The position numbers and the translations under genes are program-made. The notes below the pieces were generated by a model. It worked only from the letters and a program-made list of their open reading frames with translations. It had not been told where the DNA came from and did not search any database. A stretch of 24,000 bases of DNA from Acutalibacter intestini (lineage in GTDB: Bacteria > Bacillota > Clostridia > Oscillospirales > Acutalibacteraceae): contig NZ_JAWXXL010000008.1 of NCBI RefSeq assembly GCF_034334985.1, forward strand, positions 65,041-89,040, written 5' to 3'. Position 1 is the first letter of the stretch; the number at the start of each line of letters is the position of its first letter. Below, piece by piece: positions 2,638 to 20,924 of the stretch.

Positions 2638-3485
2638 TTTTTCCTTTCTGTTACGATATGTCTATTCTGCAATTCCAGCCCCAGCGAACCGTCTGGACGC
2701 AGCAGTATTCTCCTGACCGTGCGTTGGAACAGCTCTCTCTGAAAATCCAGGGATGGTTTGGACTTTGCGAAGTCAGCCATGAGCCTTGCCGTGATAGACT
2801 CCCGGCTGTCAATGGCCTGGTAATTCGCCGCCCCGATTTCAAATACCATCTTGATGAGCTCACCCTCGCTGGCCTGCCTACTGTCCAGCGCACGGTGAAA
2901 CTCGTTTAAGAGACGCTTGCTTTCCAGGATGCGCACTTCCGGGGCAGGATCGTCCGGGGAGGCAGTGTCAGGCGTGTTAATCAGGGTGTTCATGATAGTG
3001 ATAACCTGTGCCTTGAATCCATCATCCGACGGCCTCACCGACCAGCCGCAGTCCGGGCATTTCCAAGAGACCGGCTCGGCGGACCGGGAATCTGTTCGGC
3101 GGGTGACCTTTTTGCCGCATTTGGCGCAGACTGTAAGCTCTTTAAACAGCTTGGTGTCATCGTCTATGGTGAGCTTGTTGGTATTCGTCTGCTCCTTTTT
3201 GAGATTGGCCGCTACAAACTGTTCTCTTTGGATGAGGGCTGGGTATTCGTCTGAACCGATATACCTGCTGTTCTCCAAAATGCGCTTGATGCGGGCCTTG
3301 TCCCAACTCGTCTTTCCGGGGCTGTACTCCAACTGCCGGTGGGTCAGGTCCTCCGCTATCACCTTGAGGGAATCTCCGGCGCAGTAGCGGTGGAATATCT
3401 CCCCCACGATCTGGCTCTCGTCGGGGTGGGGGACCGGCTGTCCGGCCTCAAACTTGTATCCGTAGGGAATGTAGCGGTTACTCAT
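2634..3485 (-). CDS. Recombinase-domain and zinc-ribbon protein with no resolvase catalytic domain (truncated serine-recombinase paralogue).
   Basis: Begins directly with IPYGYKFEAG, the start of the recombinase domain. Also has ENSRYIGSDEYPALI and CAKCGKK...WKCPDCGW (zinc ribbon). No RVS(T/S) catalytic block. ATGA overlaps at both ends (3482-3485 and 2634-2637). Confidence 0.85.
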   Translation of the reverse strand: MSNRYIPYGYKFEAGQPVPHPDESQIVGEIFHRYCAGDSLKVIAEDLTHRQLEYSPGKTSWDKARIKRILENSRYIGSDEYPALIQREQFVAANLKKEQTNTNKLTIDDDTKLFKELTVCAKCGKKVTRRTDSRSAEPVSWKCPDCGWSVRPSDDGFKAQVITIMNTLINTPDTASPDDPAPEVRILESKRLLNEFHRALDSRQASEGELIKMVFEIGAANYQAIDSRESITARLMADFAKSKPSLDFQRELFQRTVRRILLRPDGSLGLELQNRHIVTERKK

Positions 3486-5014
3486 GATGGGATTTCCTCC
3501 GTAAGCTCCAGACCGCAGTGCAGCCGGAAGGTCAGTTTATTGCCTGCCGTGGGGATGATTTTCTCTACTATCTCGTCAAATTGGTCAATGTCAAACTCTG
3601 TGGGCACACCCGGCCAACTGGAAAGAATGGCCTGCAATTCCTCCAGCTTTTCCATAGCTGAGTGGGATTGCAGGCCATGTAGTTTTTTGTTTCGCTCTGC
3701 TGACAGCTTTTTCCGCTGGGAGGTAAGGCTTTCGTTCTGGATACGGAACTCGTCCGGGCTGATGAAACCCTTGCTGCTGAGTTTTTGCAGAGTGAGGGAT
3801 TTGTCATTAAGAGCGGCGATGGATTGGTTCAGCTCGAAGAGCTTGGTTTCGACAGTATTTTGACAATACTCTACTTCCATCAGCAGCCCACAAATCCCCG
3901 AAAGCAGTTGTTCATAGCAGAGAAATAGTTTTATGTTGAAATTTGCAATTGTCGTGCATATCGTTTCTTCTCTAAAGCGATAGGGCGAACAGGTGTCTGA
4001 GCCGTTCGCTCTATTGGGACAAATCCAATAAGATTTATCATTCGCTTGTAAGTGCCTAAAGAATCTGCCACAATCAGGGCATACTATTTTGTGCGTAAAT
4101 ATATGTCTCTTACGATTCGAATTACCGTTTTTGGATTTTAGCATAACCTGTGTGAGCTCAAAATCTCTTTTTGATATAATTGGAGGGTGTGAATTTGCAA
4201 CATAGTATTGTGGGCATTCGCCTCTATTTTTCCGTTTATAGTGCTTTAGAGAATCAGCCGTATAATGTTTTTGCAGTAAAGCATCGCCAATGTACCTCTC
4301 GTTATCTAAAAGCTGACGAACCGTTGAATACAGCCACTTTCTTCCGTGATGTGCCGTGATTCTTTTTTCATTCAGCCTCATAGCTATCTTTCCTATACTC
4401 TCGCCAGAAAGATATAATTTGAAAATATTTCTAACAATTTCTGCTTCTTCTGGGACGATTTCAAGTTGACTGTTAGATAACTTGTATCCATATGGAGTAC
4501 GTGTTCCGAAAAATGTGCCGTTCTCCATTCTTTTTTGATAGCTCCACTGTATGTTCCTAGATATTGACAGGCTCTCCTCCTGCGCCGCCATAGCGTACAT
4601 GGTGAGCTGCATCTCTCCAAGCACCTGGGAGGTATCAAAGCCCTGCTCCTCAAAAACAACGACCACGCCCAAGTCCTTCAGCTCGCGCGTGGTCTCTAAC
4701 AGCTCTGTTGTATTTCTGGCAAACCGGGACACGGATTTCACCAGCACCCGCTGGATCTTCCCCTCCCGGCAGTCTGCCAGCATCCGCTTGAACTCGTCCC
4801 GCTTGTCGATGCTGGTGCCTGTTATGCCCGCATCGGCATATAGGTCGTACAGCTCCCAGTCGGGGTTGTCGTTTATCAGCTTGGTGTAGTAAGCAATTTG
4901 AGAGTGATAGGAGTTGAGCTGGTCCGCTGAATCAGTGGATACCCTGCAGTAAGCCGCAACGGATTCCTTTTCGCTGGGCAGTACTATGGGGTCTATTCTC
5001 TGCACCTGCAGCAT
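3482..5014 (-). CDS. Large serine recombinase.
   Basis: VAAYCRVSTDSADQLNSYHSQ, KSVSRFARNTTE, TPYGYKL, DNERYIGDALLQK, CPDCGRFF...WICP zinc ribbon. ATG 5014 lies about 10 nt after AAAGGAGA; the ORF-track start GTG 5023 abuts the SD and is less likely. Confidence 0.93.
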   Translation of the reverse strand: MLQVQRIDPIVLPSEKESVAAYCRVSTDSADQLNSYHSQIAYYTKLINDNPDWELYDLYADAGITGTSIDKRDEFKRMLADCREGKIQRVLVKSVSRFARNTTELLETTRELKDLGVVVVFEEQGFDTSQVLGEMQLTMYAMAAQEESLSISRNIQWSYQKRMENGTFFGTRTPYGYKLSNSQLEIVPEEAEIVRNIFKLYLSGESIGKIAMRLNEKRITAHHGRKWLYSTVRQLLDNERYIGDALLQKHYTADSLKHYKRKNRGECPQYYVANSHPPIISKRDFELTQVMLKSKNGNSNRKRHIFTHKIVCPDCGRFFRHLQANDKSYWICPNRANGSDTCSPYRFREETICTTIANFNIKLFLCYEQLLSGICGLLMEVEYCQNTVETKLFELNQSIAALNDKSLTLQKLSSKGFISPDEFRIQNESLTSQRKKLSAERNKKLHGLQSHSAMEKLEELQAILSSWPGVPTEFDIDQFDEIVEKIIPTAGNKLTFRLHCGLELTEEIPS

Positions 5015-5085
5015 CTCTGTCACTCTCCTTTCGTCTGGTTACCAACACACTACCACACCCGGCCCCGAAAATCCATTCACGAATG

Positions 5086-5235
5086 TCACCGAATGTACTC
5101 CCGGTCAGGGTGCAGGATTTCGGCGTTGTACCTACTGGCCCGCGCGCGTTCTTCTTCGTTGATGGCTCCCTGTTCCACCAGGAAATCCAGGGCCTTTTGC
5201 AGAAGATAAAACTTGACGTTATTCTCTTGGTTCAT
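5086..5235 (-). CDS. Small hypothetical protein (49 aa), translationally coupled inside the recombinase cassette.
   Basis: Found by hand; it is below the ORF-track size cutoff. Translation: MNQENNVKFYLLQKALDFLVEQGAINEEERARASRYNAEILHPDREYIR. Its ATG overlaps the stop of the upstream gene (ATGA at 5232-5235). Confidence 0.5.
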   Translation of the reverse strand: MNQENNVKFYLLQKALDFLVEQGAINEEERARASRYNAEILHPDREYIR

Positions 5236-5615
5236 AGCATCTGCCCTCCCATCTCTATATTATCGGCGGCTTGCTCCGCAAGCACATCCGGCAAGGTGCA
5301 AATATTCTCTCTTACAAGGCACAGTCCTTTCCCGCACTGTGAAAGCTCCTGGCCTATCTGGAGTATCCCGCGAATATCCCCACCGAATCGGGAAATACTG
5401 ACCGCCGCCAGCACATCGAAGGTGTCCTGTTCTACGGCGTTGTGTACCAGCTCCAGCAGTTCATCTCTGCCGTTGCCAGTCACCAACGTTGTTCCCACAA
5501 TCGTCAAATCATGCTCAGCGCAAAAGCGCTCCAGCTCCGTCTTTTGCAGTGCCAGATGGTCGCTTGCGTCTGCACTCCAGCCGTTTGCCACCCGGCAGTA
5601 TAACCATGCTCTCAT
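5232..5615 (-). CDS. Resolvase-type N-terminal domain protein with Ala in place of the nucleophilic Ser (predicted catalytically dead).
   Basis: MRAWLYCRVANGW aligns with the (A/L)YCRVSTD block of the two full-length recombinases here but reads RVA instead of RVS. AAVSISRFGGD aligns with KSVSRFGRN. There is no recombinase or zinc-ribbon domain. ATG 5615 is preceded by AAAGGAA; the ORF-track start 5699 adds 28 non-homologous residues. Confidence 0.7.
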   Translation of the reverse strand: MRAWLYCRVANGWSADASDHLALQKTELERFCAEHDLTIVGTTLVTGNGRDELLELVHNAVEQDTFDVLAAVSISRFGGDIRGILQIGQELSQCGKGLCLVRENICTLPDVLAEQAADNIEMGGQML

Positions 5616-6091
5616 AACTTCACGTTCCTTTCTGTTTTTCTGCTCATGATACACAGGCGGGGATAGATACAGTTCGCCTATCCCCGTAGCGTCTATCATG
5701 AAAAATAGAAATCTGATTTTAGTTCTCTGGCCATATTTGCCCTGCGCCCCCGGCCCCGGGAATGTATCGGACGGATGCTGGCTAACACCCTCATGGTGAT
5801 CTCAACCCCGCGCGGTTCTCGCCCGGCTGCCCCCATTGCGTGAGTCTGTGGCTGGACAGAAGTTCTCAGCCTCCTGCTGGTCCTCGCCGGGATGGGGCCC
5901 GCCTATCCCCTGGGCCAATCGGCCCGCTGGCTTGCAGTCAGAAGGTGATGTATCCGATACATTGCGTATTTTGTTGTCAAAGTCCGCAAGAGCTACAGAG
6001 GGCGTTTCCGGGGTGAATTATGGCCTTTTGGCATCCCCGGAAAATGTCCCTCTATATATTCCGTACATTTTCGGGGCTAAAATTGCCCCCC

Positions 6092-6803: not shown

Positions 6804-7400
6804 TTATTGTCCCTCCCTTTCATGGTAACGCTTTTTGAGAAAAAGGCATGGAAACTGGAGCGCTGCCGAGAGAATTAGTCCAGAGCCAACCGAAACAGCC
6901 GCCCAGGTCTGATGAAAAGCCGTCAGCACAGCGCATATGGCAATGGTGATCATGGATAGAACGATGGTAATTTTCTTAAAGACCTTCTTTTCGTTCTGCG
7001 TCAGCCTCCGGCCCTCTGAATCTATGGGGCTGAACACAATAATTTGAGCAGCCGCAAGTAGTAGCACCGCACACCACCAGCCATATCCCGATGTATCAAG
7101 GACCAAGCGTATTCCTAACAGGAATGCGGTTAATACTAAGGTTGACACGATGCCGCAGAGCACAGAAGACTGGAAGTGGAACCCTCCGCAAAACTTGCGG
7201 ATCAAGATAAAGGGGATAATCAGCAGAATCCCCTCTACAACCATGTGGAGGAACATGCTGATAATCAGCACCAGACCCAAAGGACACAGAGTGAAAAGAA
7301 AACTGTAGATGCCGTACTCGTAGAGTTCCACGTCACTAGCAGAAATGGCTCCTGCCTGCAGGAGCCATTTTGCAGTGACGGCGGCTAACCGCTTGATCAC
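6804..7400 (-). CDS. agrB: AgrB-family autoinducer-processing membrane peptidase.
   Basis: Polytopic membrane protein with IRKFCGGFHFQSSVLC. The His, and a Cys 7 residues later, have the same spacing as the catalytic His/Cys pair of S. aureus AgrB (RRHAHGAHAPSSFWC, from memory). GTG 7400 overlaps the agrD stop (GTGA). Confidence 0.88.
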   Translation of the reverse strand: MIKRLAAVTAKWLLQAGAISASDVELYEYGIYSFLFTLCPLGLVLIISMFLHMVVEGILLIIPFILIRKFCGGFHFQSSVLCGIVSTLVLTAFLLGIRLVLDTSGYGWWCAVLLLAAAQIIVFSPIDSEGRRLTQNEKKVFKKITIVLSMITIAICAVLTAFHQTWAAVSVGSGLILSAALQFPCLFLKKRYHEREGQ

Positions 7401-7552
7401 TTGAGCTTGCTGAACCGGCGCAGGGTCTCGGGGGCTTTGGGCTGGAATACAACGCAAGAAGAGGCTGAATTGGCGCCCACAAACAGTACTGCAGATAAGA
7501 AAAAAGCGGTAAGCCCAGCAAGACGGGAAACGGCAGCTTTAATAGTTGTCAT
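7397..7552 (-). CDS. agrD: AgrD-type cyclic (thio)lactone autoinducing-peptide precursor, 51 aa.
   Basis: MTTIKAAVSRLAGLTAFFLSAVLFVGANSASSCVVFQPKAPETLRRFSKLK: a hydrophobic leader, a single Cys followed by C-x4-P-x2-PE, and a charged tail. GGAGG lies 8 nt upstream of ATG 7552. The gene sits immediately upstream of agrB and overlaps it. Confidence 0.8.
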   Translation of the reverse strand: MTTIKAAVSRLAGLTAFFLSAVLFVGANSASSCVVFQPKAPETLRRFSKLK

Positions 7553-7583
7553 TGAGATGACCTCCTTGTTATATGATAAATTT

Positions 7584-7655
7584 ATTATAATACATCTCAG
7601 CAAAAAAAGATAGGGCCTTTGCATGAACGGTTAATAATCAATTAAAAATGGTATT
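7584..7655 (-). promoter_or_regulatory. agrD-agrB promoter with paired LytTR-type boxes.
   Basis: Minus strand reads AATACCATTTTTAATTGATTATTAACCGTTCATGCAAAG, gccc, TATCTT (weak -35), 17 nt, TATAAT. ACCGTTCAT fits the LytTR 9-mer consensus [TA][AC][CA]GTTN[AG][TG]. A second ACC-box sits exactly 21 bp upstream. Confidence 0.55.
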
Positions 7656-7820
7656 TTTTGGAGAAAAAAGCCAAAATACACTTGTTTGAATGTGAAAGTT
7701 CGTTATAAAACAAGAAAAAGCAAAAAGCACACATTGCAGTGTGTAGTTAAATTATAATTTGTCGTTTTCTCATTCCAACCATGCTAAAATATGTGTATGC
7801 CTTTAGGAAAGGAGAAACTA

Positions 7821-8150
7821 ATGGAATTCAATCGAGCTGAGGTGGGTCGCAGGATAGCAAAGCGGCGTAAGGAATTGGGCGTAAAACAAAATGTGCTTGC
7901 AGAGAAACTGGGGTATCATAAAAATCATCTCTCCGGAATTGAACACGGTCGGATTGCTCCGAGCATGGATTTGTTTGTAGGAATATGCAAGGAACTAAAT
8001 GTGTCTCCGAACTACCTACTAGAGGGTGCCATGCACCCAGAAAATGTTCCTCTTGACATTGTGGCTGACATAAACAGATGCAGGGATGAGGATAAGGAGG
8101 TCATCGCAGAAATCGTTAAAATCTACGTTGACAAAGCTGAAAAAACGTGA
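7821..8150 (+). CDS. XRE-family HTH transcriptional regulator.
   Basis: IAKRRKELGVKQNVLAEKLGYHKNHLSGIEHGRIAPSMDLFVGICKELNVSPNYLL. ATG 7821 follows AGGAGA. Confidence 0.9.
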   Translation: MEFNRAEVGRRIAKRRKELGVKQNVLAEKLGYHKNHLSGIEHGRIAPSMDLFVGICKELNVSPNYLLEGAMHPENVPLDIVADINRCRDEDKEVIAEIVKIYVDKAEKT

Positions 8151-8175
8151 CATCCATGCACAAATAAGGTATAAT
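8147..8175 (+). promoter_or_regulatory. Sigma-A-like promoter for the response-regulator/kinase pair.
   Basis: GTGACA (8147-8152), 17 nt, TATAAT (8170-8175), overlapping the end of the XRE gene. Confidence 0.45.
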
Positions 8176-8199
8176 ATATCTTGAGGAGGGATGTCTCCA

Positions 8200-8916
8200 A
8201 TGAGGATAGTGTTCTGTGATGACGATGTAACCGTTATGGATAAGCTGGAGAAGTATCTTCGGGCATATTTCAGTGAGAATAAATTGAAACAGCCTGAGTA
8301 CGAAGCTTACATCAATGGAGAGGAATTACTGAATTCAGACAAGAGAATTGATATAGCTTTTCTTGATGTGGAGATGCCAGGTATAGACGGTATCACAGTT
8401 GGAGCTAGGTTAAAGGCCCGGTTTCCCTATGTGAAAATCATAATACTTACGTCATTTTCGGACTACTTGGACGAAGCTATGAAATTTCATGTGTTTCGCT
8501 ACTTATCAAAGCCGCTTGAGAAAAGTCGCTTATATAGAAACATGAAAGAGGCATTGTATCAAATCAGTGTTGATACAAAACCTGTGTTGATTGAAACCGC
8601 CGATGAGTCCGTCACAAGATTTGCCGATGAAGTGATTATGGTAGAGGCAAACAAGCACAAGGTGAAAGTTTTTACTGTGGATAAGGTATACGATTCCGTT
8701 CAACCGATGAAACATTGGGAAACTCTTTTGGAAATAGGAAGTTTCTACCATACCCATCGCAGCTACATTGTAAATATGAAGTTTGTTCGCTCCTTCGATG
8801 CAACTACACTCAAGATGGGTTCACCAAGCGGTGAGAACCATCGGGCGTATATGGCCCGCAGAAAGTATCCAGGATTCAAGAGTGCATATGTGCGGTTTCT
8901 GGAGGCGATGAAATAA
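8200..8916 (+). CDS. LytTR-family response regulator (AgrA-like).
   Basis: Receiver domain (MRIVFCDDD..., IAFLDVEMPGIDG, IIILTS) followed by a LytTR DNA-binding domain (FYHTHRSYIVNMKFV). ATG 8200 lies 10 nt after GAGGAGG; ATG 8191 abuts the SD. Confidence 0.93.
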   Translation: MRIVFCDDDVTVMDKLEKYLRAYFSENKLKQPEYEAYINGEELLNSDKRIDIAFLDVEMPGIDGITVGARLKARFPYVKIIILTSFSDYLDEAMKFHVFRYLSKPLEKSRLYRNMKEALYQISVDTKPVLIETADESVTRFADEVIMVEANKHKVKVFTVDKVYDSVQPMKHWETLLEIGSFYHTHRSYIVNMKFVRSFDATTLKMGSPSGENHRAYMARRKYPGFKSAYVRFLEAMK

Positions 8917-10220
8917 TGCAAACAATCACCTTTATCTGTGTCTACTTAGTAGAGGGGATAACTGCTTGGCAGTATTTTTCCTCCCTGTTTATTCCGAAAA
9001 AGAAGCCCATCATACGAATTTCGCTATTTATACTTGGGTATGCACTCGGTTGTCTGCTATTCAATTTATCTATAATTTGGATTAATACAATTTTCTTTAC
9101 CCTGCTCAATTTATTACTGCTTAAGTCTTTCTATATTTGTTCCTGGAAAAGCTGCATTTATCATACTGTGTTGCTGACTTGCCTTACTTTAGGCACAGAA
9201 ATTCTCGTGGAGTTTCTCCTTGGAATGCTTTTCGGAGGGGCTGAGAAATATCAGGACAGCCTTCCAATTCTAGTTTTTCTCTGTGTTTTTAGTAAACTAC
9301 TCTATTACACACTGACAAAACTGTGCATCCGCCTTTCACCCAAATCATTGACAAATATACACGATGCAGGCCCCATCGCGCTTTTGCTAGGCAGTTTCTC
9401 GTTTTCAACGATTTTCATTCTGCTCATTATGGCGTACTCAGCGCTGTATTGTAATTTGCCGCCCTTTATTGAAACCTTGATGATGGTAGGAGCGCTGATC
9501 CTTCTTCTTTCTGCCTTGGCAATATTTGCAGGATATCAGTATAGTCAGAAGCTTAATAAGGAGAATCTAGAACTCCAGTTGATAAAGCAGAAGGATCAGG
9601 TGGAAGGAGAATATTTCAGTGCTCTTGAGGATCAATATGAACGTCAGCAGGTCCTGCTCCACGATTTACGGCGGCATCTTACTGCCATCAAAGAATTTGC
9701 GCTGGAGAATGAAGACCAACAGGTGGTGCACTATGTCTCCAATTTACAAAACCTCCCAGCGCTTCAGCGAAAGCTGAAATATTGTGAGAACCTAATGCTA
9801 AATGTGGTTCTAGCCCGTTATAAGGAACTAAGCGATGAGAAAGGCATCCAGTTTTCCGCAGATGTCCGAGATGTAGATATGGATTTTTTGGCGCAAAACG
9901 ACATAACCGCTCTGTTCGGGAATTTGCTGGAGAACGCTGTGGAGTCTGCTGAAAATTCAGAAAAGCCCTATATTGAGCTTATAATTGGCTCCAACGGAGA
10001 TACACATTCTGATGCTAAGCTCTTTGTTTCCCTGACAAACTCCTGCGACAATGAGCCACTTAAAGACAGTGCCGGTAATTTTCTGACACACAAACTAAAC
10101 AAGGAGTGGCATGGAATGGGGCAGAAAAGTATTAAGAGAGCCGTGAAGAAATATGGCGGTACTTTAGAACACCAATATTGCAAGGAAACTCATCTGTTCC
10201 ACACGTCCATTTTATTTTGA
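8916..10220 (+). CDS. AgrC-type (HPK10) sensor histidine kinase with GHKL ATPase.
   Basis: About 6 N-terminal transmembrane helices, H-box LLHDLRRHLTAI, N-box NLLENAVES, G-box HGMGQKSIKRAVKKYGG. ATGA overlap with the regulator gene. Confidence 0.9.
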   Translation: MQTITFICVYLVEGITAWQYFSSLFIPKKKPIIRISLFILGYALGCLLFNLSIIWINTIFFTLLNLLLLKSFYICSWKSCIYHTVLLTCLTLGTEILVEFLLGMLFGGAEKYQDSLPILVFLCVFSKLLYYTLTKLCIRLSPKSLTNIHDAGPIALLLGSFSFSTIFILLIMAYSALYCNLPPFIETLMMVGALILLLSALAIFAGYQYSQKLNKENLELQLIKQKDQVEGEYFSALEDQYERQQVLLHDLRRHLTAIKEFALENEDQQVVHYVSNLQNLPALQRKLKYCENLMLNVVLARYKELSDEKGIQFSADVRDVDMDFLAQNDITALFGNLLENAVESAENSEKPYIELIIGSNGDTHSDAKLFVSLTNSCDNEPLKDSAGNFLTHKLNKEWHGMGQKSIKRAVKKYGGTLEHQYCKETHLFHTSILF

Positions 10221-14112: not shown

Positions 14113-15221
14113 TGAGGAAGATAGACAAAAACGACCCGTATGAGAAGTATTTGTTTAGTGACCGGCCGCCCTGGAAACCCACCACACTAAAGCAGAAAGC
14201 CTTGTGGGTATCCGCCCTGGTCTTTTGGCTGATTGCCGCCTGCACCCTTTTCGCTGTTAAAAATCAGGAGCTGATGACCCCGCAGGTTACCACTGTGAGT
14301 GCCGAAAACAGCTACAACTCAGGTTCCCCGGCAAAGCTGCCTCTTGACTGCCTGCAGTTGGACAGCGAAGGTGGGATGCACCTTTACGAGATTTATGAGG
14401 GTACCGGCTGGGAGGCTGGGGTGCGGGTCCGGGAGGTACAGGGGTTCTCCTTGGACGAAGACAATGTACTCCTGGACAATGGCGGCTGGGGGGAGTATGT
14501 CCAGTATGCCTCAAAGACTCTGACCGATGGCGAGCTGGTGGAGGTGATTCGGGGCGGGGAAAAAGCCGCTGACCACTGGCTTGCCGTGTTCCCGGAGGAC
14601 GCGCCGGAGCCAGATCATCTCCCTAGTGGCGTGGAGATCGTGGCCCAGGACGGCAACGCCCTACTGCTGTCCGTGGAATCTGACCAGCAGCCCTTCATGG
14701 AGGGCCGGGCCAAGAGCCTTGTGCCGGAGCTTTCCGGGGCCAGGATCTATAGCTTGTCTGCCATGGAGCAGTTCCAGGGCAATTTCATCTGCATGGGCCT
14801 GCTGCTCATGATATTTGTCATCCTGTTCTGGATGTGGGGCTACGCCTGGTATGAGAATCAGCTTGACAAAAGGTATCCCCGGATGTGGCCCATGAGCGTT
14901 GGCATCAGCGTGGTGCTTTTGGGCGGCATAGCGGTGATCCTGCACTTTGTGAACCTGCCCTCCTCCCTGTTGCCGCCGGAGCAGATCACGGACCTGTGGT
15001 ATTACGGCCACGATTTTGGCCAGGCTTTCCCAGCCCTGGAGCGCTTTGGGGAGCAGTTTGAGAGAGGGAACCGGCTGGTTATAATGCAGACGGTCGCACT
15101 CTTTTGCAGTCTTGGGTTTATGGCCGTGGGCGCGGGGATCGGCTACCTGATTGCGCGGGTGGAAGAGTTTTATATGGAGGAGATCTGCGTTAAGAGGATG
15201 CGCCGGGGGGAATGGCGGTAA
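14109..15221 (+). CDS. Hypothetical polytopic membrane protein coupled to the ABC permeases.
   Basis: ATGA overlap at 14109-14112. One N-terminal transmembrane helix, an extracytoplasmic segment of about 170 aa, then 4-5 C-terminal transmembrane helices. No motif recognised. Confidence 0.7.
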   Translation: MMRKIDKNDPYEKYLFSDRPPWKPTTLKQKALWVSALVFWLIAACTLFAVKNQELMTPQVTTVSAENSYNSGSPAKLPLDCLQLDSEGGMHLYEIYEGTGWEAGVRVREVQGFSLDEDNVLLDNGGWGEYVQYASKTLTDGELVEVIRGGEKAADHWLAVFPEDAPEPDHLPSGVEIVAQDGNALLLSVESDQQPFMEGRAKSLVPELSGARIYSLSAMEQFQGNFICMGLLLMIFVILFWMWGYAWYENQLDKRYPRMWPMSVGISVVLLGGIAVILHFVNLPSSLLPPEQITDLWYYGHDFGQAFPALERFGEQFERGNRLVIMQTVALFCSLGFMAVGAGIGYLIARVEEFYMEEICVKRMRRGEWR

Positions 15222-15245
15222 CTGACGGAGGATGAAAAAGGGGAG

Positions 15246-15276
15246 GACGCCGCAATTTTTAGCGGCGCCCTTTTTT
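15246..15276. terminator. Bidirectional terminator hairpin between convergent genes.
   Basis: CGCCGC (15248-15253), aattttta, GCGGCG (15262-15267), then TTTTTT on the plus strand. On the minus strand the hairpin is followed by TCCTCCCCTTTTTC. Confidence 0.6.
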
Positions 15277-18163
15277 ACAGCCCATACTTTTTCTTAACAT
15301 ACTGGAGAAAATGCTCGATCTCATATTTCGCCTCATCGGGGAGTTTTCTTGCCGTTACCCACTTCGGGATGACAACGTGAGCCGTTCCTTCCTCCTGCCT
15401 GTGAAACGTCGCCTTTTCCCGCTCAAAGTCCAGCTTGAACAGCTTATAACCCTCCGTCACCCAAGCCTCCGCCATGGCGTTCTGGTCGGGCCGGGTGTAC
15501 CAGCGGGAGGTGTGCTTTCTTGCCGATGGGGATAGATCGCGGCCCAGGATCGTTTCAATCTCCTTAAATTTGAGGGTGATAGAGGCGTCGTTCTGTTTTG
15601 CAAACCATTTTTTCAAAGGCATGAACGGCCAGTTCGACCGTAGCGGACCAGGGGCTTTCTCTCTGGCATCCGGGCCGAGGGCAGTGGTCATCTCCTGCGC
15701 TCCATCCACCAGTTCCCTGTGAGTGTAAACGCTGACGTCTCCCAGCACTTCATGAACCGTCAGCTCGTTAGGTCTGCACAGCTCATGCACATAGGCAAAA
15801 TTGGAGGGCAGCGCGGGGCCTGTCGGGTCGATCAGCATCACTTCTCTGGGGTGGTCCGGCAGAATCGGCCTGCCGCAGTAGTAGCAGCGGCCTTGCTGGC
15901 GTTTCCATACTTCTTGATATTTTCCGGTTGCCCCAACGATATTTTTTCGCTCATGGCGGCTCTGAAAGTATTCTATATCAATGTAGGGATTTTTGTTCAG
16001 CAGAATTTTCTCGTAACACTCCACCAGCAAAGTTTCAGAAATCTTTCGGACACGCACACTCCTGTTGTGGGGCAGACTGTATACCGATTTTCCCTTTGAA
16101 TCTGTGTACCAATACTTTGCCCGTAGTTTCGGCGGGTTCATCCGAGGGTGCCGGGCCAAAGCCGCTTTCCACAGGCAGCTCTCCACCAGTTCATCAATCT
16201 CCCGGAACGCGGCCCTAGCGTTAGAGTAGTGGTGATAGGAGGCCCAGCCGGAGAGCTTGCGGTTGATAGAGTCTATCAGGTTCTTCTGAGAGCGATTGTG
16301 GGTGAGTATCAGCTCCTGCAAACCGGCCTTGATCCGGGCTACCGCCGATTGTGAGGGTGTGAGGTGTATATGACCGTTTTCCTTGACGTAATGTCGGGAG
16401 ATGAAATCAAAGCCCTGATAAACGGAAACCACCTTTGTTTTTTCTTCTGAGACCTGCAGACCCCGCTCCGCCAGAAAACTCCGGGTGATTCCTACCATCT
16501 TCTCAGCGTCCTCTCTGCTCTTTGCTGACAGGAAAATGTCGTCCGCAAACCTGACAAGATTTCCGTTCGCGTAATCAGAAACAGGCATACCATTATATAA
16601 GTGCTTGTATATGTACCCTTGCAGCCCGTCCAGTACATGATTTGCCATCATGGGCGAAAGGTTGGCTCCCAGCGATATGCCGGATTCTTCTTCCGGAAAC
16701 AACTCCCCGGCAAACACATGACCGGCGCGAAGAAATTCTCCCAACACTTTCTTATCCATAGGAATATGCTCCATAAGCCAAGTACGCTGTATGTTTGAAT
16801 AATATGCCTTTACATCTATGACAGCAACCCACTTGGGCGGATTTAGCCCCTGCAGGACTTCCAGAATGTAAGCGTGAGCGTCCAGTGCTGAACGCCCCAC
16901 TCGGAACGCAAAGGACTTCTTTTCTCCCCAAGCCTCCAACACCGGGGCCAGGGAAAAGCCGTAAAGTATCTGCATGGCCCGGTCAAAGTAGGTGGGAAGG
17001 CCATAGGTGCGCTCCCTGCCGGTTGGCTTGGACTTTACCTTAATATCCCGCAAGGGCTGGGCGTGGTAGTTCTTGGAGGTCAGCATGAGCGCGGCCCGCA
17101 TTTTCTCTCCAGGCGTTTTCCACTTGATACCATCTACCCCCGGCCCGGAATCGCCGCTGCACACCTTTCGTACTGCAAGCTGCTTGATTTCTGTCCGGCG
17201 GACTAACTGCATTTGCAGTGCCTTTATCTTCTCGCCGTCCCGCTGCTGTGCCGCCAATGCTATCACCTTTTGCAGGCTCGCCAGTATCTGCTCTGCGGCT
17301 GTCCAGTCCGTTTCCTCCCACAGCTCCCCCAGGAACGCATCGGGGAAGTCAATGGAGGGCCGCATGGCGCGCAGCTTGGAGCAATCGAACTTTTCCCCGG
17401 CCACATAGTTCAAGTGGATTTTCAGCTCAATGGGGCAGTGGTCAGAGCCGAAAATCTCCGTGTGATGTTCCACCCCGTGGATTCGTTTCGCCAGATTCCG
17501 GTCAACAAGAAAGTAATCCAGCCGCCAGCCATCATTCTTTGAACGCTTGTCAAAACGCTGGCTCCACCAGGTATAGGCCCCTTCCTGGTCAGGGTGCAGG
17601 AGCCGGAAAGCGTCCACGAATCCGCTGTCTAACAGGGTTTCCAGATTGTCCCTCTCCACTGAAATATATCCCTTTTCCTGGTCCTGGATGCGGGTGTTTT
17701 CCGGGAACACGTCTATGGCGCTGCGGGTGACATTGAAGTCCCCGCATATGATGACCGGCTTGTATTCTTTCAGTTTCTGTACGAAAACAAACAACGCCTC
17801 GTCCCACCGGCCGCGGTAGGCCCGACGTTCCGGGCTGTCCTGCGCGTTGGGGACATAGGCGTTGATAATATAAAATGCCTGGTATTCAAGTGTGATGATG
17901 CGGCCCTCCCGGTCCAGGCTCTCTTGGCCCAGGCCCATCCGCACATCCAGAGGTTCTTCCTTTGCCATCGTCAATACTCCGGCGTAGCCCTCCCGCTTCC
18001 CGGTTTCCCAATAGTGGCGGTATCCCGGCAGCACTTTAGGGCGGCGGTTGGTCCGAACCTCTTGCAGGCACAGGATGTCCGGCTGCAATGCCTCTATCGG
18101 TTCAAACCCATTTTTGTCTATGCAGGCCATAAGGCCGTTGACGTTCCAGCTTATGATTATCAC
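15275..18163 (-). CDS. Fusion protein: ExoIII/APE-type EEP nuclease, group-II-intron-like reverse transcriptase, X/maturase-like domain, degenerate HNH and a C-terminal extension (962 aa).
   Basis: aa 1-250: MIIISWNVNG, ILCLQEV, ICGDFNV, GWRLDYFLV, GSDHCPIEL (the full ExoIII motif set). aa 280-600: DWTAAEQILASLQ (RT0), GVDG, RTYGLPTYFDRAMQ, FAFRVGRSALDA, VIDVKAYYSNI, SLGANLSPMMANHVL, RFADDIF (codons at 16538-16549), EEKTKV..GFDFISRHY. aa 630-650: RKLSGWASYHHYS (X/GIIM-like). aa 759-797: CYYCGRP...EVMLIDP...SNFAYVHELC (HNH-like). The GTG start is supported by alignment to ExoIII N-termini (MK-ISWNVNG). Confidence 0.95.
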   Translation of the reverse strand: MIIISWNVNGLMACIDKNGFEPIEALQPDILCLQEVRTNRRPKVLPGYRHYWETGKREGYAGVLTMAKEEPLDVRMGLGQESLDREGRIITLEYQAFYIINAYVPNAQDSPERRAYRGRWDEALFVFVQKLKEYKPVIICGDFNVTRSAIDVFPENTRIQDQEKGYISVERDNLETLLDSGFVDAFRLLHPDQEGAYTWWSQRFDKRSKNDGWRLDYFLVDRNLAKRIHGVEHHTEIFGSDHCPIELKIHLNYVAGEKFDCSKLRAMRPSIDFPDAFLGELWEETDWTAAEQILASLQKVIALAAQQRDGEKIKALQMQLVRRTEIKQLAVRKVCSGDSGPGVDGIKWKTPGEKMRAALMLTSKNYHAQPLRDIKVKSKPTGRERTYGLPTYFDRAMQILYGFSLAPVLEAWGEKKSFAFRVGRSALDAHAYILEVLQGLNPPKWVAVIDVKAYYSNIQRTWLMEHIPMDKKVLGEFLRAGHVFAGELFPEEESGISLGANLSPMMANHVLDGLQGYIYKHLYNGMPVSDYANGNLVRFADDIFLSAKSREDAEKMVGITRSFLAERGLQVSEEKTKVVSVYQGFDFISRHYVKENGHIHLTPSQSAVARIKAGLQELILTHNRSQKNLIDSINRKLSGWASYHHYSNARAAFREIDELVESCLWKAALARHPRMNPPKLRAKYWYTDSKGKSVYSLPHNRSVRVRKISETLLVECYEKILLNKNPYIDIEYFQSRHERKNIVGATGKYQEVWKRQQGRCYYCGRPILPDHPREVMLIDPTGPALPSNFAYVHELCRPNELTVHEVLGDVSVYTHRELVDGAQEMTTALGPDAREKAPGPLRSNWPFMPLKKWFAKQNDASITLKFKEIETILGRDLSPSARKHTSRWYTRPDQNAMAEAWVTEGYKLFKLDFEREKATFHRQEEGTAHVVIPKWVTARKLPDEAKYEIEHFLQYVKKKYGL

Positions 18164-18169
18164 AAGTCC

Positions 18170-18610
18170 TCACTTCCTCGTTGGATATAAGGTGATGATC
18201 CTCCCCTTTGCCGGTATAGCACAATCCTTACTTTTATGGTTGTCCTTTCTTTGCGCATATTCCAATATAATTTCATCCAATTTGGCAAGCTGCTCCTCCC
18301 TTTCGTACTTATTCATCCCGCGCAGACTTCCGCCAAAGCACTTGTCCATAGCCGCCGGATCGGAATACTCTCTCCAAATTTTGACCCATTCATCTGCTGA
18401 ATCTGTTGTGCCTATATACAGCGGTTCCCCACCCCAGCTATCGTAAGCCAATAGCTGGCCTTTGGATTCCATAAGACGCAGGGTTAGCCTGCCTAAAGCT
18501 GGGAAATGCAGAATTTTCTTTTCAATCAAGTCACCCAAGGTGAATGGAGTTTGCTCCCTCCAATAGTCCTTTAGTATTTTCCGCTGGGTGAATGTAAGGA
18601 AATGTTTCAT
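18170..18610 (-). CDS. Hypothetical protein (146 aa), middle gene of the RT operon.
   Basis: ATG 18610 follows AAGAAAGGTGGA. The stop lies 6 nt before the RT start. MKHFLTFTQRKILKDYWREQTPFTLGDLIEKKILHFPALGRLTLRLMESKGQLLAY could be a winged helix; this is a guess. Confidence 0.65.
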   Translation of the reverse strand: MKHFLTFTQRKILKDYWREQTPFTLGDLIEKKILHFPALGRLTLRLMESKGQLLAYDSWGGEPLYIGTTDSADEWVKIWREYSDPAAMDKCFGGSLRGMNKYEREEQLAKLDEIILEYAQRKDNHKSKDCAIPAKGRIITLYPTRK

Positions 18611-18626
18611 GCAGTATCCACCTTTC

Positions 18627-19097
18627 TTAGGCCATGTTGATAATGGCAAGTCCATGAGTTCGCGCATAGTTGACTGTGTATGCTGTCCCGCCCGTGTTCT
18701 GCATCTGATAGCAGACACAGACACTGCTGCCATCTACCAAATGCCGGTTGCGTTTGTACATACACCCTGACGTGTACTCCTGGCTGACATATTTTACCTT
18801 GTTTGCCCTGCGCTTGATTTCTTCATATCGTGCCACATCTTCAGCTTTCCAGCCCTTTGTCTGATTCAAACATGGCAAAACTAAAATCAACCGCATATTT
18901 TGCAAGCTGCCATCCCGCAGGCGTAGGACTGTTTCGGCTGCGAGGGCATCAAATCCCAAAGCACCCCCAGCGCGATAGTTAATAATACCATTATTATACA
19001 GCTTTATTATAGTCTGTTCCAGCTTTTCTTCTATCAAGGCGTAATCTTTTTCTGGTATGTGTCTGTGGCCGGTAAAACAACAGATTTTTTCACGCAT
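18627..19097 (-). CDS. SLOG-superfamily protein (DUF1273, YpsA/YoqJ-like).
   Basis: ICCFTGHR, AGGALGFDALAAETV, LILVLPCLNQTKGW and KRNRHLVDGSSVCVCY..GGTAY match the YpsA/YoqJ block order, recalled from B. subtilis YpsA. GGAG lies 6 nt before ATG 19097. Confidence 0.78.
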   Translation of the reverse strand: MREKICCFTGHRHIPEKDYALIEEKLEQTIIKLYNNGIINYRAGGALGFDALAAETVLRLRDGSLQNMRLILVLPCLNQTKGWKAEDVARYEEIKRRANKVKYVSQEYTSGCMYKRNRHLVDGSSVCVCYQMQNTGGTAYTVNYARTHGLAIINMA

Positions 19098-19151
19098 GGT
19101 TAGCTCCTTCTGTGTATTCTATTTTGAATATCGCAATTAGAATATATCCAT

Positions 19152-19181
19152 AATATACCAAATGGGATATAATCTTGTCAA
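19152..19181 (-). promoter_or_regulatory. Promoter of the SLOG / unknown / EEP-RT operon.
   Basis: Minus strand: TTGACA (19181-19176), 18 nt, TATATT (19157-19152). A 7-bp inverted repeat, TATTCTA (19115-19121) and TAGAATA (19138-19144), lies just downstream, around the predicted +1. Confidence 0.5.
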
Positions 19182-19197
19182 GAAGGAGGAGGGTGCC

Positions 19198-19374
19198 ATG
19201 CCTAAATTTGTTCCGAGAAAACCGGAGAAGGAAGTAATTTCCATGCGCATTGCCGTTGACACCCTCCGGGAAGTCGATGAAAGGGCCTCTGAATATGGAC
19301 TGAGCCGAAACGAGCTGATGAATCAAATGATTGATTTTGCCCTTGCGAATATGGATGATGTTTCCACAGAGTAG
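19198..19374 (+). CDS. Ribbon-helix-helix (CopG/Arc-type) DNA-binding protein, 58 aa.
   Basis: EVISMRIAVDTLREVDERASEYGLSRNELMNQMIDFAL shows a beta-strand, helix, helix pattern. GGAGGAGG lies 6 nt upstream of ATG 19198. Confidence 0.8.
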   Translation: MPKFVPRKPEKEVISMRIAVDTLREVDERASEYGLSRNELMNQMIDFALANMDDVSTE

Positions 19375-19383
19375 CGTATAGGC

Positions 19384-19412
19384 AGAAAGCGCCGGTTTCC
19401 CCGGCGCTTTCT
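19384..19412. terminator. Bidirectional terminator hairpin.
   Basis: Perfect 12-bp stem AGAAAGCGCCGG / CCGGCGCTTTCT with loop TTTCC, between convergent genes. Confidence 0.75.
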
Positions 19413-19418
19413 TGCATT

Positions 19419-19655
19419 TCAATCTATGAACTGCTCTGGATTAAAGAACAAAGAAGGTTCCACGCCGAAGACTTCAGCTATCTTCTTTACTTTACCCAAA
19501 TCCGGGCAGACTTTGCCCGTCTCATAGTACACATAGCTAGTGCGGGATATGCCCAGTTTTTTGGCTGTTTCCGATTGGCTTAGGCCAGCATTCTTGCGCT
19601 GCATGCGCAGCATTAGACCCAAATTCGTTTGAAATTCTGATTGATAATGCTCCAT
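19419..19655 (-). CDS. XRE-family HTH regulator (78 aa).
   Basis: LRMQRKNAGLSQSETAKKLGISRTSYVYYETGKVCPDLGKVKKIAEVFGV. Its RBS, GGAGG, lies inside the last codons of the upstream gene. Confidence 0.9.
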   Translation of the reverse strand: MEHYQSEFQTNLGLMLRMQRKNAGLSQSETAKKLGISRTSYVYYETGKVCPDLGKVKKIAEVFGVEPSLFFNPEQFID

Positions 19656-19658
19656 TTT

Positions 19659-20093
19659 TTACGCCTCCATTCTTATGTTTTTTAGGGCCTCTTGAATCTC
19701 CGGCAGCGCCTTTATGTCCTTCACACTGTCCCTAGGGCACCAGGCATAGAATACTACTGAGATACCCTCCGAGACAATAAGCCGGCACTCGTAATAGTCG
19801 CTTTCACTGTCATGATAAAAAACCTCATGTCCCCTCATCCCATTGTGCAAAATTTGTGCTATGGGCGAGTAGGGGACAAAGGTTGAACTCTCGTCTGTAA
19901 AAAGAGTCTCCAGGTCCGCCCGTGGGTCATCTTCATCGTCTACGAAAATTTCAAACCATAGATTATATTTTTCCAGCCAGGCCGTAAGCCCATATTCAAA
20001 GGATGCGGCTGCCTCGGTTTCCAGGCATGCTCCTTCCGGCAGCCGGAACGATACGCCGCCAGCATGAAAGCTGCCATTTTTGTATTTAAGCAT
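19659..20093 (-). CDS. Hypothetical acidic protein (144 aa).
   Basis: ATG 20093 follows GGGGGA. The stop lies 3 nt before the XRE gene. No motif recognised. Confidence 0.65.
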   Translation of the reverse strand: MLKYKNGSFHAGGVSFRLPEGACLETEAAASFEYGLTAWLEKYNLWFEIFVDDEDDPRADLETLFTDESSTFVPYSPIAQILHNGMRGHEVFYHDSESDYYECRLIVSEGISVVFYAWCPRDSVKDIKALPEIQEALKNIRMEA

Positions 20094-20210
20094 GAAATCC
20101 CCCTTTTTTCTATAACGCAAATTACATTTGCTATTTAAGTCCATTTGGACTACCGAACAGCTTGCGGATTGCTCACACGCTGGACGAGTAATGCCGCCTT
20201 TGCCTAATCA

Positions 20211-20924
20211 TCACCGGTTTAGATAATCGGCCATAGCATAGATAAATTCCACCGGCATAGGCTTTTCTACAACCTCATGTTTTACAATGCGGCTGTAGAC
20301 CGGCGGGTTCTCAGTAAACCCCCAAATATTACTGACCATACGTTTCAATTCACGGTCTACCACTGCCGGATCTGCTTTTTCGTTAGCTGAAACCCGTTCA
20401 CATATTTCAAGCGTAGTCAAGCGTTCCGGCAAATCAATCACAGCCTCGCGGATGGCGCTCACCAGGAATGGATAACCCTTGTAGGTTTTCTTGATGTTGA
20501 ATTGTTTCAGCGCATCCTCTACGTTGCTTGAAATCTTGTCGTGAGTCTTGGCAAGGAAGTTTGTTTTCAGCCTATGGGCTGCTATCATCTGCTTTTCTTC
20601 TTCACTCAAATCACCCAGCTTTTGGGGGTCCACAGTAGGCATGTGGCGGACTCGCTGCCGGGCCGTTTCGAGGTTCGCATACTCATCCGGGTGAAGAAAG
20701 GACTCCGGCGGGATTTGGAAGATCGCGCCCAGTTTCAGCAAGGTCATTATGTCAGGGCAGATTTTCCCGGTTTCGTAGTTGGTGTAGGTGGCCCGGTTCA
20801 CACAAAGCATGGCCGCTATATCGCCTTGGGTAAAACCGCAGAACATGCGAACCGAGCGCAGCATCCTTTGCAGGTTGTGCTTATACGCCGTTTCCTGTGT
20901 TAGGTTTATCTCAGCTAACGTCAA
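20211..20924 (-). CDS. XRE HTH domain fused to a Spo0A C-terminal-like DNA-binding domain.
   Basis: N-terminus: FCGFTQGDIAAMLCVNRATYTNYETGKICPDIMTLLKLGAIF. C-terminus: YKGYPFLVSAIREAV...VDRELKRMVSNIW...KPMPVEFIYAMADYL, which parallels Spo0A IKGYLYLREAI...VERAIRHAIEVAW...KPTNSEFIAMVADKL (from memory). TTG start lies 7 nt after GAGGTG. Confidence 0.75.
   Translation of the reverse strand: MTLAEINLTQETAYKHNLQRMLRSVRMFCGFTQGDIAAMLCVNRATYTNYETGKICPDIMTLLKLGAIFQIPPESFLHPDEYANLETARQRVRHMPTVDPQKLGDLSEEEKQMIAAHRLKTNFLAKTHDKISSNVEDALKQFNIKKTYKGYPFLVSAIREAVIDLPERLTTLEICERVSANEKADPAVVDRELKRMVSNIWGFTENPPVYSRIVKHEVVEKPMPVEFIYAMADYLNR

Follow-up and report, generated by a model that had tools for sequence, protein, structure and literature searches.

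What could a gene that seems to join exonuclease III to the reverse transcriptase (RT) of a group II intron do for a gut bacterium and its mobile DNA? This question is raised by a stretch of 24,000 nucleotides of Acutalibacter intestini (contig NZ_JAWXXL010000008.1, positions 65,041 to 89,040 of the forward strand; the whole stretch is called the window hereafter), where three minus-strand genes encode a SLOG protein, a 146-aa protein and a nuclease-RT fusion protein, called EEP-RT or Xth-RT. A preliminary description of this operon had proposed a new defence or retroelement module. According to our results, the operon is carried as cargo by an integrative element that encodes serine recombinases and resides in gut Clostridia (Acutalibacter-like hosts), and its core, as read from the sequence, is a domesticated, intron-less RT of the group II intron type coupled to a genuine exonuclease III. 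By analogy, we give an even chance to the possibility that the module serves DNA-damage repair or tolerance on mobile elements, for the element as well as for its host. The core gene and the domains of its product are as follows.

15275-18163, minus strand: EEP-RT (Xth-RT) fusion gene, 962 aa, GTG start; core gene of the module
17414-18163, minus strand: exodeoxyribonuclease III (Xth/EEP) domain, aa 1-250 (TIGR00633, PDB profile)
16403-17320, minus strand: group II-type RT fingers/palm (RVT_N + RVT_1), aa 282-587, active site R-F-A-D-D
16109-16339, minus strand: maturase/thumb domain (GIIM), aa 609-685 (Pfam PF08388, E 1.8e-13)
15776-15901, minus strand: HNH remnant, a CCHC zinc finger (C760, C763, H793, C796; alignment, 6ME0)
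15401-15622, minus strand: DUF7662 C-terminal domain, aa 848-921 (Pfam PF24698, E 6.5e-9)

By its sequence, the N-terminal part of about 250 residues qualifies as a bona fide exodeoxyribonuclease III of the repair type. Pfam Exo_endo_phos covers residues 4-242, the NCBIfam models TIGR00633 and TIGR00195 give 252.5 bits (cut-off 99) and 227 bits (cut-off 182.6), respectively, and the PDB structures of ExoA and APE1 are matched with E-values of 1e-57 to 1e-65. The domain is about 45% identical to the housekeeping xth genes of many Clostridia, and its EEP catalytic residues (N7, E35, D142/N144, D216, D241/H242) are invariant in 16 members sharing 39-100% identity. The endonuclease domain Exo_endo_phos_2 (PF14529), typical of long interspersed nuclear elements (LINEs), is sub-threshold in Pfam (20.9 bits vs 27.4).

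The RT part would be a near-complete group II intron protein, in which RT and maturase/thumb domains, a DNA-binding region and an HNH domain with degenerate catalytic residues are recognized. Residues 281-781 have as their best PDB match the T.el4h mobile group II intron protein (6ME0, E 4e-81), and the alignment reaches through the DNA-binding region (D) into part of the endonuclease region (En); the NCBIfam model TIGR04416 gives 221 bits, with a cut-off of 300. The active site reads R(F/Y)ADD, with invariant aspartates, in 16/16 aligned members. In the same alignment, the former HNH domain has kept its four Cys/His ligands in every member, whereas its general-base His is mostly replaced by Q and its Asn is not conserved, which argues that a zinc finger is what remains of the intron endonuclease. 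The protein thus appears to have undergone a nuclease swap, HNH having decayed and Xth having been added at the opposite end.

The C-terminal DUF7662 is mostly found elsewhere as a stand-alone small protein of 80-150 aa, as indicated by a homologue search, and it also occurs in fusions with a GmrSD-like restriction enzyme, with XRE proteins and with zinc-ribbon proteins. A profile search revealed no PDB relative of this domain. The GmrSD-like protein, of 938 aa with DUF7662 at its C-terminus, is encoded at three loci (L161, L164 and L174, 3496-6309; loci are designated by L and a number), its DUF262 (DGQQR) and DUF1524 motifs being read by eye. An N-terminal zinc ribbon precedes DUF7662 at L151, L154, L157, L159 and L172, and an XRE helix-turn-helix (HTH) accompanies it at L150.

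Is this architecture a peculiarity of one genome? The protein search yielded 802 matches among the 8000 candidates scored, and the best 120 of these 802 homologues are mostly full-length proteins of 930-980 aa, with few shorter entries, coming mainly from gut, rumen and termite metagenomes and from Clostridia genomes. The family comprises hundreds of clusters of 39-97% identity, across which the catalytic residues of both enzymes are invariant. A split form is common, in which a nuclease of ~255 aa and an RT of ~695 aa are encoded by adjacent, separate genes. Since the stop and start codons of the split loci overlap (ATGA or GTGA) behind a GGAGG, their Xth and RT are translationally coupled and, being always either fused or coupled neighbours, Xth and RT form an invariant unit. 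Frameshifted or shortened copies also exist (L105, L108, L125, L142 and L183). At L183 (6422-7648), a SLOG gene and a 146-aa gene are followed by an Xth-RT of 408 aa, consisting of Xth and RVT_N only, and then by a GNAT gene; this Xth-RT is a decayed or shortened copy.

A genome-contig scan, which drew on the ExoIII motifs of the whole-protein alignment, mostly returned housekeeping xth genes and found family members only at L001-L003. In the phage and plasmid collections no family member was detected, the matches being ordinary group II intron proteins of 30-35% identity. The searched literature, outside whose coverage most subscription journals fall, held no description of a fusion of Xth/EEP with a group II-like RT, of its link to Y-family polymerases (PolY; see below) or of DUF7662, and the Xth-RT family is apparently undescribed.

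Does the RT still belong to a retroelement? Neither Intron_gpII nor group-II-D1D4 was detected with Rfam, be it at the gathering threshold over the window or at E<=1 over 14800-19800, and the window contains no retron RNA or other Rfam structured RNA near the module. Neither Rfam, applied to the window, nor a comparison of flanks revealed a non-coding RNA (ncRNA) or a conserved intergenic region beside the module. When flanks were compared across contexts, no non-coding flank was common to different contexts, only same-context matches and one 23-nt match of borderline E-value being obtained, and there were no convincing flanking repeats around Xth-RT. The template and variable repeats (TR/VR) of a diversity-generating retroelement (DGR) were not found either, as no direct repeat longer than 35 nt occurs in the window and none lies near the module. 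Each RT variant that was looked up resides in one context, as seen in 24 contigs with P0004, 24 with P0018 and 21 with the window protein. With one context per variant and no shared flanks, there is no sign of independent gene movement, nor of a retroelement RNA in the window, and the idea of a retroelement module is not supported.

The RT itself was compared with the models of known classes. Its best PADLOC matches are generic RT and CRISPR-RT models, those of defence-associated RTs (DRTs) giving at most 54 bits; the NCBIfam Drt models are far below their cut-offs and the retron RT model reaches 25 bits vs 235. An RT of the UG/Abi type of DRT was rejected, as the DRT/Abi models are weak, the GIIM thumb is present and ncRNA was not found. 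What the preliminary description likened to DRT/Abi logic is therefore better described as a protein of the group II intron type whose thumb is intact. The same fate befell the retron, for want of msr/msd RNA in the window and of a sufficient score, and the DGR, the RT being group II-type and TR/VR repeats being absent from the window. A mobile group II intron was rejected because there is no ribozyme RNA in the window and the open reading frame (ORF) is closely flanked by another gene, 6 nt upstream, and by a terminator, 3 nt downstream, and an APE-type non-LTR retrotransposon because PF14529 is sub-threshold, the nuclease is better matched as a bacterial Xth and each looked-up variant has one context. 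With group II intron proteins as nearest relatives and no intron RNA in the window, the protein falls among the group II-like, intron-less RTs (G2L). It does not belong to the G2L4 subgroup, whose YIDD motif is absent, R(F/Y)ADD being found in 16/16 aligned members.

How does Xth-RT compare with characterized proteins? G2L RTs, especially G2L4 of Pseudomonas aeruginosa, are free-standing and group II-derived like Xth-RT, and likewise have kept the thumb and have no intron RNA. Translesion synthesis past abasic (AP) sites and 8-oxoguanine (8-oxoG) has been demonstrated for G2L4 as well as for a group II intron RT, and both also carry out repair by microhomology-mediated end-joining (MMEJ) (bioRxiv 10.1101/2022.03.14.484287). 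In contrast to G2L4 and its YIDD, Xth-RT has (F/Y)ADD, a D region, an HNH remnant and DUF7662, and is always paired with or fused to Xth. Because the best structural relative of Xth-RT is an En-containing mobile intron protein, its domestication was probably independent of that of G2L4. In PPRT/DRT7, an enzyme of DNA metabolism also stands N-terminal to a group II-like RT, but this enzyme is a PrimPol, the thumb is made of alpha-repeats and a C-terminal domain of 1000 aa follows, whereas Xth-RT has exonuclease III and a canonical thumb and is devoid of that domain. The PrimPol-RT fusion reportedly has a dual role, in defence and in the response to oxidative damage (PMC12439943).

Mobile group II intron proteins (LtrA, T.el4h IEP) share 30-35% identity with Xth-RT over RT, X, D and part of En. 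Compared to them, Xth-RT lacks ribozyme domains in the window and has lost the HNH catalytic residues, and has gained Xth and DUF7662. The ORF2 proteins of APE-type LINEs consist of a nuclease, an RT and a CCHC finger in that order. The same succession of EEP-fold nuclease, non-LTR/group II-type RT and Cys/His finger is found in LINE ORF2p (e.g. LINE-1) and in Xth-RT, for which a LINE-like logic is possible, with a nick supplying the primer of the RT. Nevertheless, the nuclease of Xth-RT is close to the host Xth, and the contexts looked up display no untranslated regions, multicopy distribution or target-site duplications as in LINEs. The resemblance is best read as convergence.

What do the neighbouring genes tell about function? 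A Pfam census of 149 neighbouring proteins, located within 3.3 kb in 26 contexts other than the window, showed that the commonest family is IMS/IMS_C, i.e., PolY, which outranks resolvases, relaxases and YpsA. Searches were then made with the polymerase and with the small genes downstream of it. PolY was present inside the fetched flanks in 9 distinct contexts (L081 group, L087, L100, L105 group, L121, L135/L185, L136/L142, L188 and the element of the window), and the small partner genes were found alone, at contig edges, in 5 further ones (L102, L122, L181, L182 and L183). The cassette of PolY and a YolD-like protein, or its partners, thus accompanies Xth-RT in ~14 of roughly 36 contexts; in the window element, it ends 29 bp past the right edge of the window. 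The small partner is recognized as YolD-like weakly in L135 (E 0.002) and above the Pfam threshold in L188. It is known that the YolD-type small subunits of PolY are variable (PMC12926913).

Some of these genes form same-strand runs with Xth-RT, such as IMS-GNAT-YolD-like-Xth-RT (L135), IMS-EEP2-YolD-like-Xth-RT (L100) and IMS-YolD-x-HTH-XthRT (L188). The order and orientation of the cassette with respect to Xth-RT vary between contexts, which argues against simple inheritance of one fixed backbone. Cassettes of the UvrX-YolD/YqjW-YqjX type, known from Gram-positive prophages and integrative and conjugative elements, thus flank or precede Xth-RT in many loci; they are separate genes outside the module and the window, and what they share with Xth-RT is genomic neighbourhood. 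Both probably share an SOS-type regulation. The presence of a PolY/YolD neighbour points to DNA repair or damage tolerance more than to defence. In two loci, a second, shorter EEP gene (219-228 aa, Exo_endo_phos E 8e-13) lies directly after the polymerase gene and a few genes upstream of Xth-RT (L100 2829-3488, L121 794-1480).

Xth-RT is preceded in the window by two further genes, and the signals that surround the operon could be located as listed here.

18627-19097, minus strand: YpsA-type SLOG gene, 156 aa (ORF list, Pfam)
18170-18610, minus strand: 146-aa gene ('U146'), from an internal ATG of a 187-aa ORF; no Pfam match
19181-19152, minus strand: operon promoter TTGACA-18-TG-n-TATATT (promoter scan), kept in L181 and L182
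19139-19175, no strand assigned: 11-nt inverted repeat covering the -10 box and the spacer of the promoter; putative operator for the RHH protein
19198-19374, plus strand: divergently encoded RHH/CopG-like regulator, probably of 58 aa; 19162 is an alternative ORF start
15244-15271, no strand assigned: bidirectional terminator hairpin, 3 nt past the RT stop (scan and folding)
19385-19413, no strand assigned: hairpin that closes both the RHH gene and the XRE gene upstream (folding)

Do the three genes of the operon belong together? Loci were collected from the encoding contigs, from a metagenome scan with the family-specific C-terminus and from a viral-contig scan, and were collapsed above 90% nucleotide identity, leaving 34 scorable contexts. 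In 9/34 distinct contexts (26%), the gene immediately upstream of Xth-RT has the same orientation and encodes a YpsA-type SLOG protein; these contexts span RT identities of 38-100% and include both fused and split forms. Judged against an estimated ~1 YpsA-family gene per Firmicute genome, the linkage between SLOG and Xth-RT is real and strong, far above chance, and facultative. The 146-aa gene is found in 4 contexts only (window, L183, L181 and L081 group). In L181 (~3320-3390), the first SLOG codons (MRE..CCF.GHRH) survive behind the conserved promoter and the rest of the gene is deleted, the 146-aa gene and Xth-RT being intact despite this loss. Other upstream genes are mutually unrelated, and many Xth-RT genes are solitary. 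Co-occurrence of the three genes, proposed as a check in the preliminary description, is thus borne out for SLOG in 9/34 contexts, but SLOG is missing from 74% of them and the 146-aa gene is restricted to 4. As only Xth and RT are constant, SLOG is lost in L181 and many EEP-RT genes stand alone, the three genes do not make up a fixed module.

Sequence comparison places the SLOG protein in the YpsA clade of the SLOG superfamily, with 60 bits against Pfam PF06908 (YpsA; cut-off 27.7, E=4e-16), a profile match to the B. subtilis YpsA structure 2NX2 (E 3e-16) and invariant pocket motifs (TGHR, GxAxGxD, RNR, GT..T..YA). Weak DprA matches were also obtained in the Pfam and PHROG searches. In B. subtilis, YpsA confers protection against H2O2 and, when overproduced, prevents the cells from dividing, and SLOG domains have been linked to conflict systems (PMC6459960). 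By analogy, such H2O2 protection combined with a division block may be said to resemble an SOS-type checkpoint.

The 146-aa protein has no match in Pfam, NCBIfam, PADLOC or PHROGs and belongs to a small family, with 40 representative clusters in a HMMER search, Acutalibacter being the host indicated by its homologues. An AlphaFold2 model based on a 36-sequence alignment has a mean confidence (pLDDT) of 78, above 87 at residues 1-80, an earlier one built from 13 sequences (pLDDT 46) having been discarded. Its topology of three helices, a beta-hairpin wing and a long C-terminal helix predicts a winged helix-turn-helix (wHTH) followed by a C-terminal helix, and its top Foldseek matches are all wHTH proteins, though weak (E 0.008-0.07). 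Neither Pfam nor HMMER provided a sequence-profile link to any wHTH family; a relationship by sequence to BlaI/MecI was not supported by a full HMMER search and was rejected, the resemblance being kept at the level of the fold. The protein thus remains without a family, as described earlier, except for this weak winged-helix resemblance of the model. At L142, a BlaI-type winged-helix gene fills the slot of the 146-aa gene.

The anatomy and domain calls of the operon given in the preliminary description are correct, as seen from ORFs and Pfam: the ORF list confirms three minus-strand genes with gaps of 16 nt and 6 nt, each preceded by a Shine-Dalgarno sequence. The single good promoter also stands. 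In the promoter scan, TTGACA-18-TATATT scores 11/12 and has a TG extension, which makes it the top site on the minus strand. Promoter-like sites in the region are not above shuffles (6 vs 5.0+/-2.2), but the promoter and the 11-nt inverted repeat (91% complementary arms, 15-nt spacer) are almost invariant in L181 and L182, where the RT is only 80% and 59% identical, which speaks strongly for a real promoter signal. Terminators had been placed at both ends of the module. The hairpin at 15244-15271 (-23 kcal/mol, z -3.4) is flagged on both strands by the terminator scan; that at 19385-19413 (-25 kcal/mol, z -5.8) is found by folding only and does not satisfy the T-tract rule of the scan.

The divergent ORF has weak RHH_1/CopG matches in Pfam and repressor matches in PHROG. 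Since its homologues are 58-61 aa long and begin with MPKFVP, the gene probably extends over 19198-19374, and with this start a divergent RHH regulator and an intergenic region of 100 bp are indeed found. Its orthologues, 72-93% identical, occupy the same divergent position in L181 and L182, and a small divergent regulator exists in 6/6 near-clade contexts, being of the RHH type in the window, L181 and L182 and of the XRE/HTH type in L081, L087 and L183.

On what kind of element does the operon travel? One end of the integrative element is marked by recombinase genes.

1015-5023 and 5232-5699, minus strand: three large serine recombinases and a short resolvase-like ORF; one end of the integrative element

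Besides the three serine recombinases, the parts of the element present in the window are a sigma-region-4 protein, an agr-type set, an ABC transporter, the Xth-RT module, XRE/Spo0A_C-type regulators and an M56 peptidase. The RT gene of the window occurs in identical form in 21 contigs, always inside the same element, which together with the serine recombinases at 1015-5023 confirms the mobile-element cargo location proposed earlier. Relaxases, conjugation-type hydrolases and serine recombinases are found on elements carrying family members, and some copies stand amid ordinary chromosomal genes. Genes of oxidative-stress or redox function are found at two loci: directly upstream of Xth-RT on the same strand, L088 has genes for a rhodanese-disulfide reductase, a rubredoxin-domain protein and rubrerythrin (2158-5742), and L121 a gene for flavodoxin (3329-3814).

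Several other observations were made on these elements. A similar run of serine recombinases follows Xth-RT in L093 and L181, and L181 has, close by, ParB_N/DUF6551 genes of the kind that typifies the leading regions of plasmids. The agr-type cargo set of the window (6804-10220) consists of AgrB (6804-7457, minus strand), LytTR (8191-8916, plus strand) and a GHKL kinase (8916-10220, plus strand), and an ORF of 51 aa is found ahead of agrB in L175. The sole Rfam match above the gathering threshold in the window is a pemK RNA (RF02913) at 5791-5863 on the minus strand (44 bits, E 4e-5), between the resolvase-like ORF at 5232-5699 and the sigma-region-4 gene. The element of L175 is 98-99% identical to that of the window but is rearranged inside the M56 (BlaR1-like) gene (21706-21159 vs L175 6556-7005), the M56 peptidase having 236 aa in L175 vs 360-384 aa in the window and L176.

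Upstream of the module, a 237-aa protein with an XRE HTH and a Spo0A C-terminal-like part (20211-20924, minus strand) is kept in L175, L181 and L183. A protein of 161 aa (19659-20144, minus strand) has no family match and has paralogues in related elements; those of L182 are encoded at 5447-5878 and 3815-4633, one paralogue of this locus taking the place of the 146-aa gene between SLOG and Xth-RT, and another being fused to a Spo0A_C-like domain. Proteins resembling the C-terminal domain of the RNA-polymerase alpha subunit (helix-hairpin-helix) adjoin Xth-RT in L087 (10877-12053), L092 (1-14) and L113 (190-1247), the assignment in L113 being made by eye alone, as Pfam found no family.

What, then, could the module do? 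From the gene and domain identities, the intact catalytic residues, the lack of an intron RNA in the window, the existence of both fused and split forms and the statistics on neighbouring genes, we infer the following role and biochemical steps. The Xth domain would incise abasic sites or nicks and trim blocked 3' ends, leaving a 3'-OH that the RT domain would extend on a DNA or RNA template, while the DNA-binding region, the CCHC finger and DUF7662 would hold or target the DNA. The YpsA-SLOG protein would be a facultative helper, the winged-helix 146-aa protein would be facultative too, the RHH protein would repress the shared promoter, and the module would act alongside the neighbouring Y-family polymerase/YolD cassette. 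As a class, group II-type RTs are capable of strand displacement, lesion bypass and microhomology end-joining, and Xth is classically the enzyme that deals with AP sites and with blocked 3' ends after peroxide damage. These two sets of activities, the oxidative-damage role of the PrimPol-RT fusion, the H2O2 protection by YpsA and the PolY/YolD linkage are the grounds on which we propose a role in repair or tolerance; the rubrerythrin and flavodoxin genes next to Xth-RT in L088 and L121 agree with it as well.

Several points weigh against such a role. The argument for this function is one of gene association. Most of the loci belong to related mobile elements, so that the PolY counts are not phylogenetically independent and part of the linkage may be backbone synteny, and ~60% of the contexts have no PolY gene in the available sequence. 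The neighbours also include restriction-modification (RM; MmeI, Mrr, HsdM), AbiE and Macro genes, and both these RM/Abi neighbours and the presence of DUF7662 in a GmrSD-like restriction enzyme fit defence equally well. The presumably tight repression of the operon would suggest toxicity. Finally, resection by ExoIII would leave recessed 3' ends, unlike the classical MMEJ substrate.

Anti-phage or anti-plasmid defence of a DRT-like type would accommodate some of these points. The RT would synthesise DNA upon infection, with Xth as effector or product processor, SLOG would respond to a nucleotide signal, and the invader would be sensed by DUF7662 or by the winged-helix protein. The carriage as mobile-element cargo near MmeI RM, AbiE, Mrr and HsdM genes and near SNF2 helicases, which are among the neighbours in the Pfam census, agrees with this possibility, as do the patchy distribution with varying accessory genes, the DUF7662-GmrSD fusion, the tight repression and the tie of SLOG domains to conflict systems (PMC6459960). 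It is a serious rival, but we consider it rather unlikely: the RT lies outside the UG/Abi clades and matches DRT models weakly, no family member is among the PADLOC models, the canonical thumb is kept, no ncRNA template was found in the window and the nuclease is a housekeeping-type repair enzyme. Moreover, the commonest conserved neighbour is a translesion polymerase cassette and no defence gene. Of the defence module of the preliminary description, the mobile cargo setting is thus retained, whereas the top conserved neighbour, PolY/YolD, located outside the window, favours repair. A related possibility is that the module helps the element to establish itself or to counter restriction, by repairing element DNA damaged, nicked or cut upon host entry, for instance through end-joining after restriction or through second-strand or gap synthesis after conjugative entry of single-stranded DNA (ssDNA). 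It would be in line with the relaxases, conjugation-type hydrolases and serine recombinases of the elements, with the ParB_N/DUF6551 genes of L181, with the MMEJ activity of group II-type RTs and with YpsA being a sister family of the ssDNA-binding DprA, of which weak matches were seen. From sequence, it is inseparable from repair or tolerance in general and, some copies being found amid ordinary chromosomal genes, we hold it to be quite improbable.

The domain order shared with APE-type LINE ORF2, an RT very near to mobile intron proteins and solitary copies in unrelated surroundings could also evoke a self-mobile, LINE-like retroelement, whose Xth would nick a target where the RT would copy its own mRNA by target-primed reverse transcription. 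This is very improbable in our opinion, as each variant is confined to one context over the 24, 24 and 21 contigs mentioned above, flanks are not conserved between contexts and are free of convincing repeats, and the gene of the window is set tightly between its upstream neighbour (6 nt) and the terminator (3 nt); its nuclease is, in addition, of the Xth type, with Exo_endo_phos_2 sub-threshold. That the RT is a functionless remnant of a group II intron ORF abutting xth by chance is hardly credible. The degenerate HNH and the frameshifted or shortened copies at five loci would be expected from such a remnant, but full-length members numbering in the hundreds have retained every catalytic residue, even where identity falls to 39%, and the adjacency or fusion of Xth and RT is universal, with translational coupling.

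A bolder proposal is that bacteria independently built a machine resembling LINE ORF2p, an intron protein having lost HNH and captured Xth so as to perform nick-primed reverse transcription. We regard it as unlikely. If true, it would be used for RNA-templated repair on mobile elements or in an unseen form of retrotransposition, and would offer a living analogue of the step thought to have yielded APE-type non-LTR retrotransposons, as well as a natural, compact 'nickase-RT'. Whatever its use, the protein appears as a natural nuclease replacement in a retroelement protein, with HNH lost and an APE-type nuclease gained in parallel to LINE evolution, and such a compact natural nuclease-RT fusion is of possible interest to genome engineers.

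Provisionally, Xth-RT joins a known kind of proteins, the domesticated group II-like RTs, its convergence on the domain order of LINE ORF2 being notable. If the module instead acts in defence, it would represent a new RT-based type on a group II scaffold. Domesticated group II-type RTs have only recently been tied to DNA repair (G2L4, PPRT). If Xth-RT has a role in repair, it would add a large branch, present throughout gut Clostridia, in which an RT is tied physically to a base-excision nuclease and genomically to translesion cassettes. The damage-tolerance kits of mobile elements would then be more elaborate than those known of the umuDC/rumAB type.

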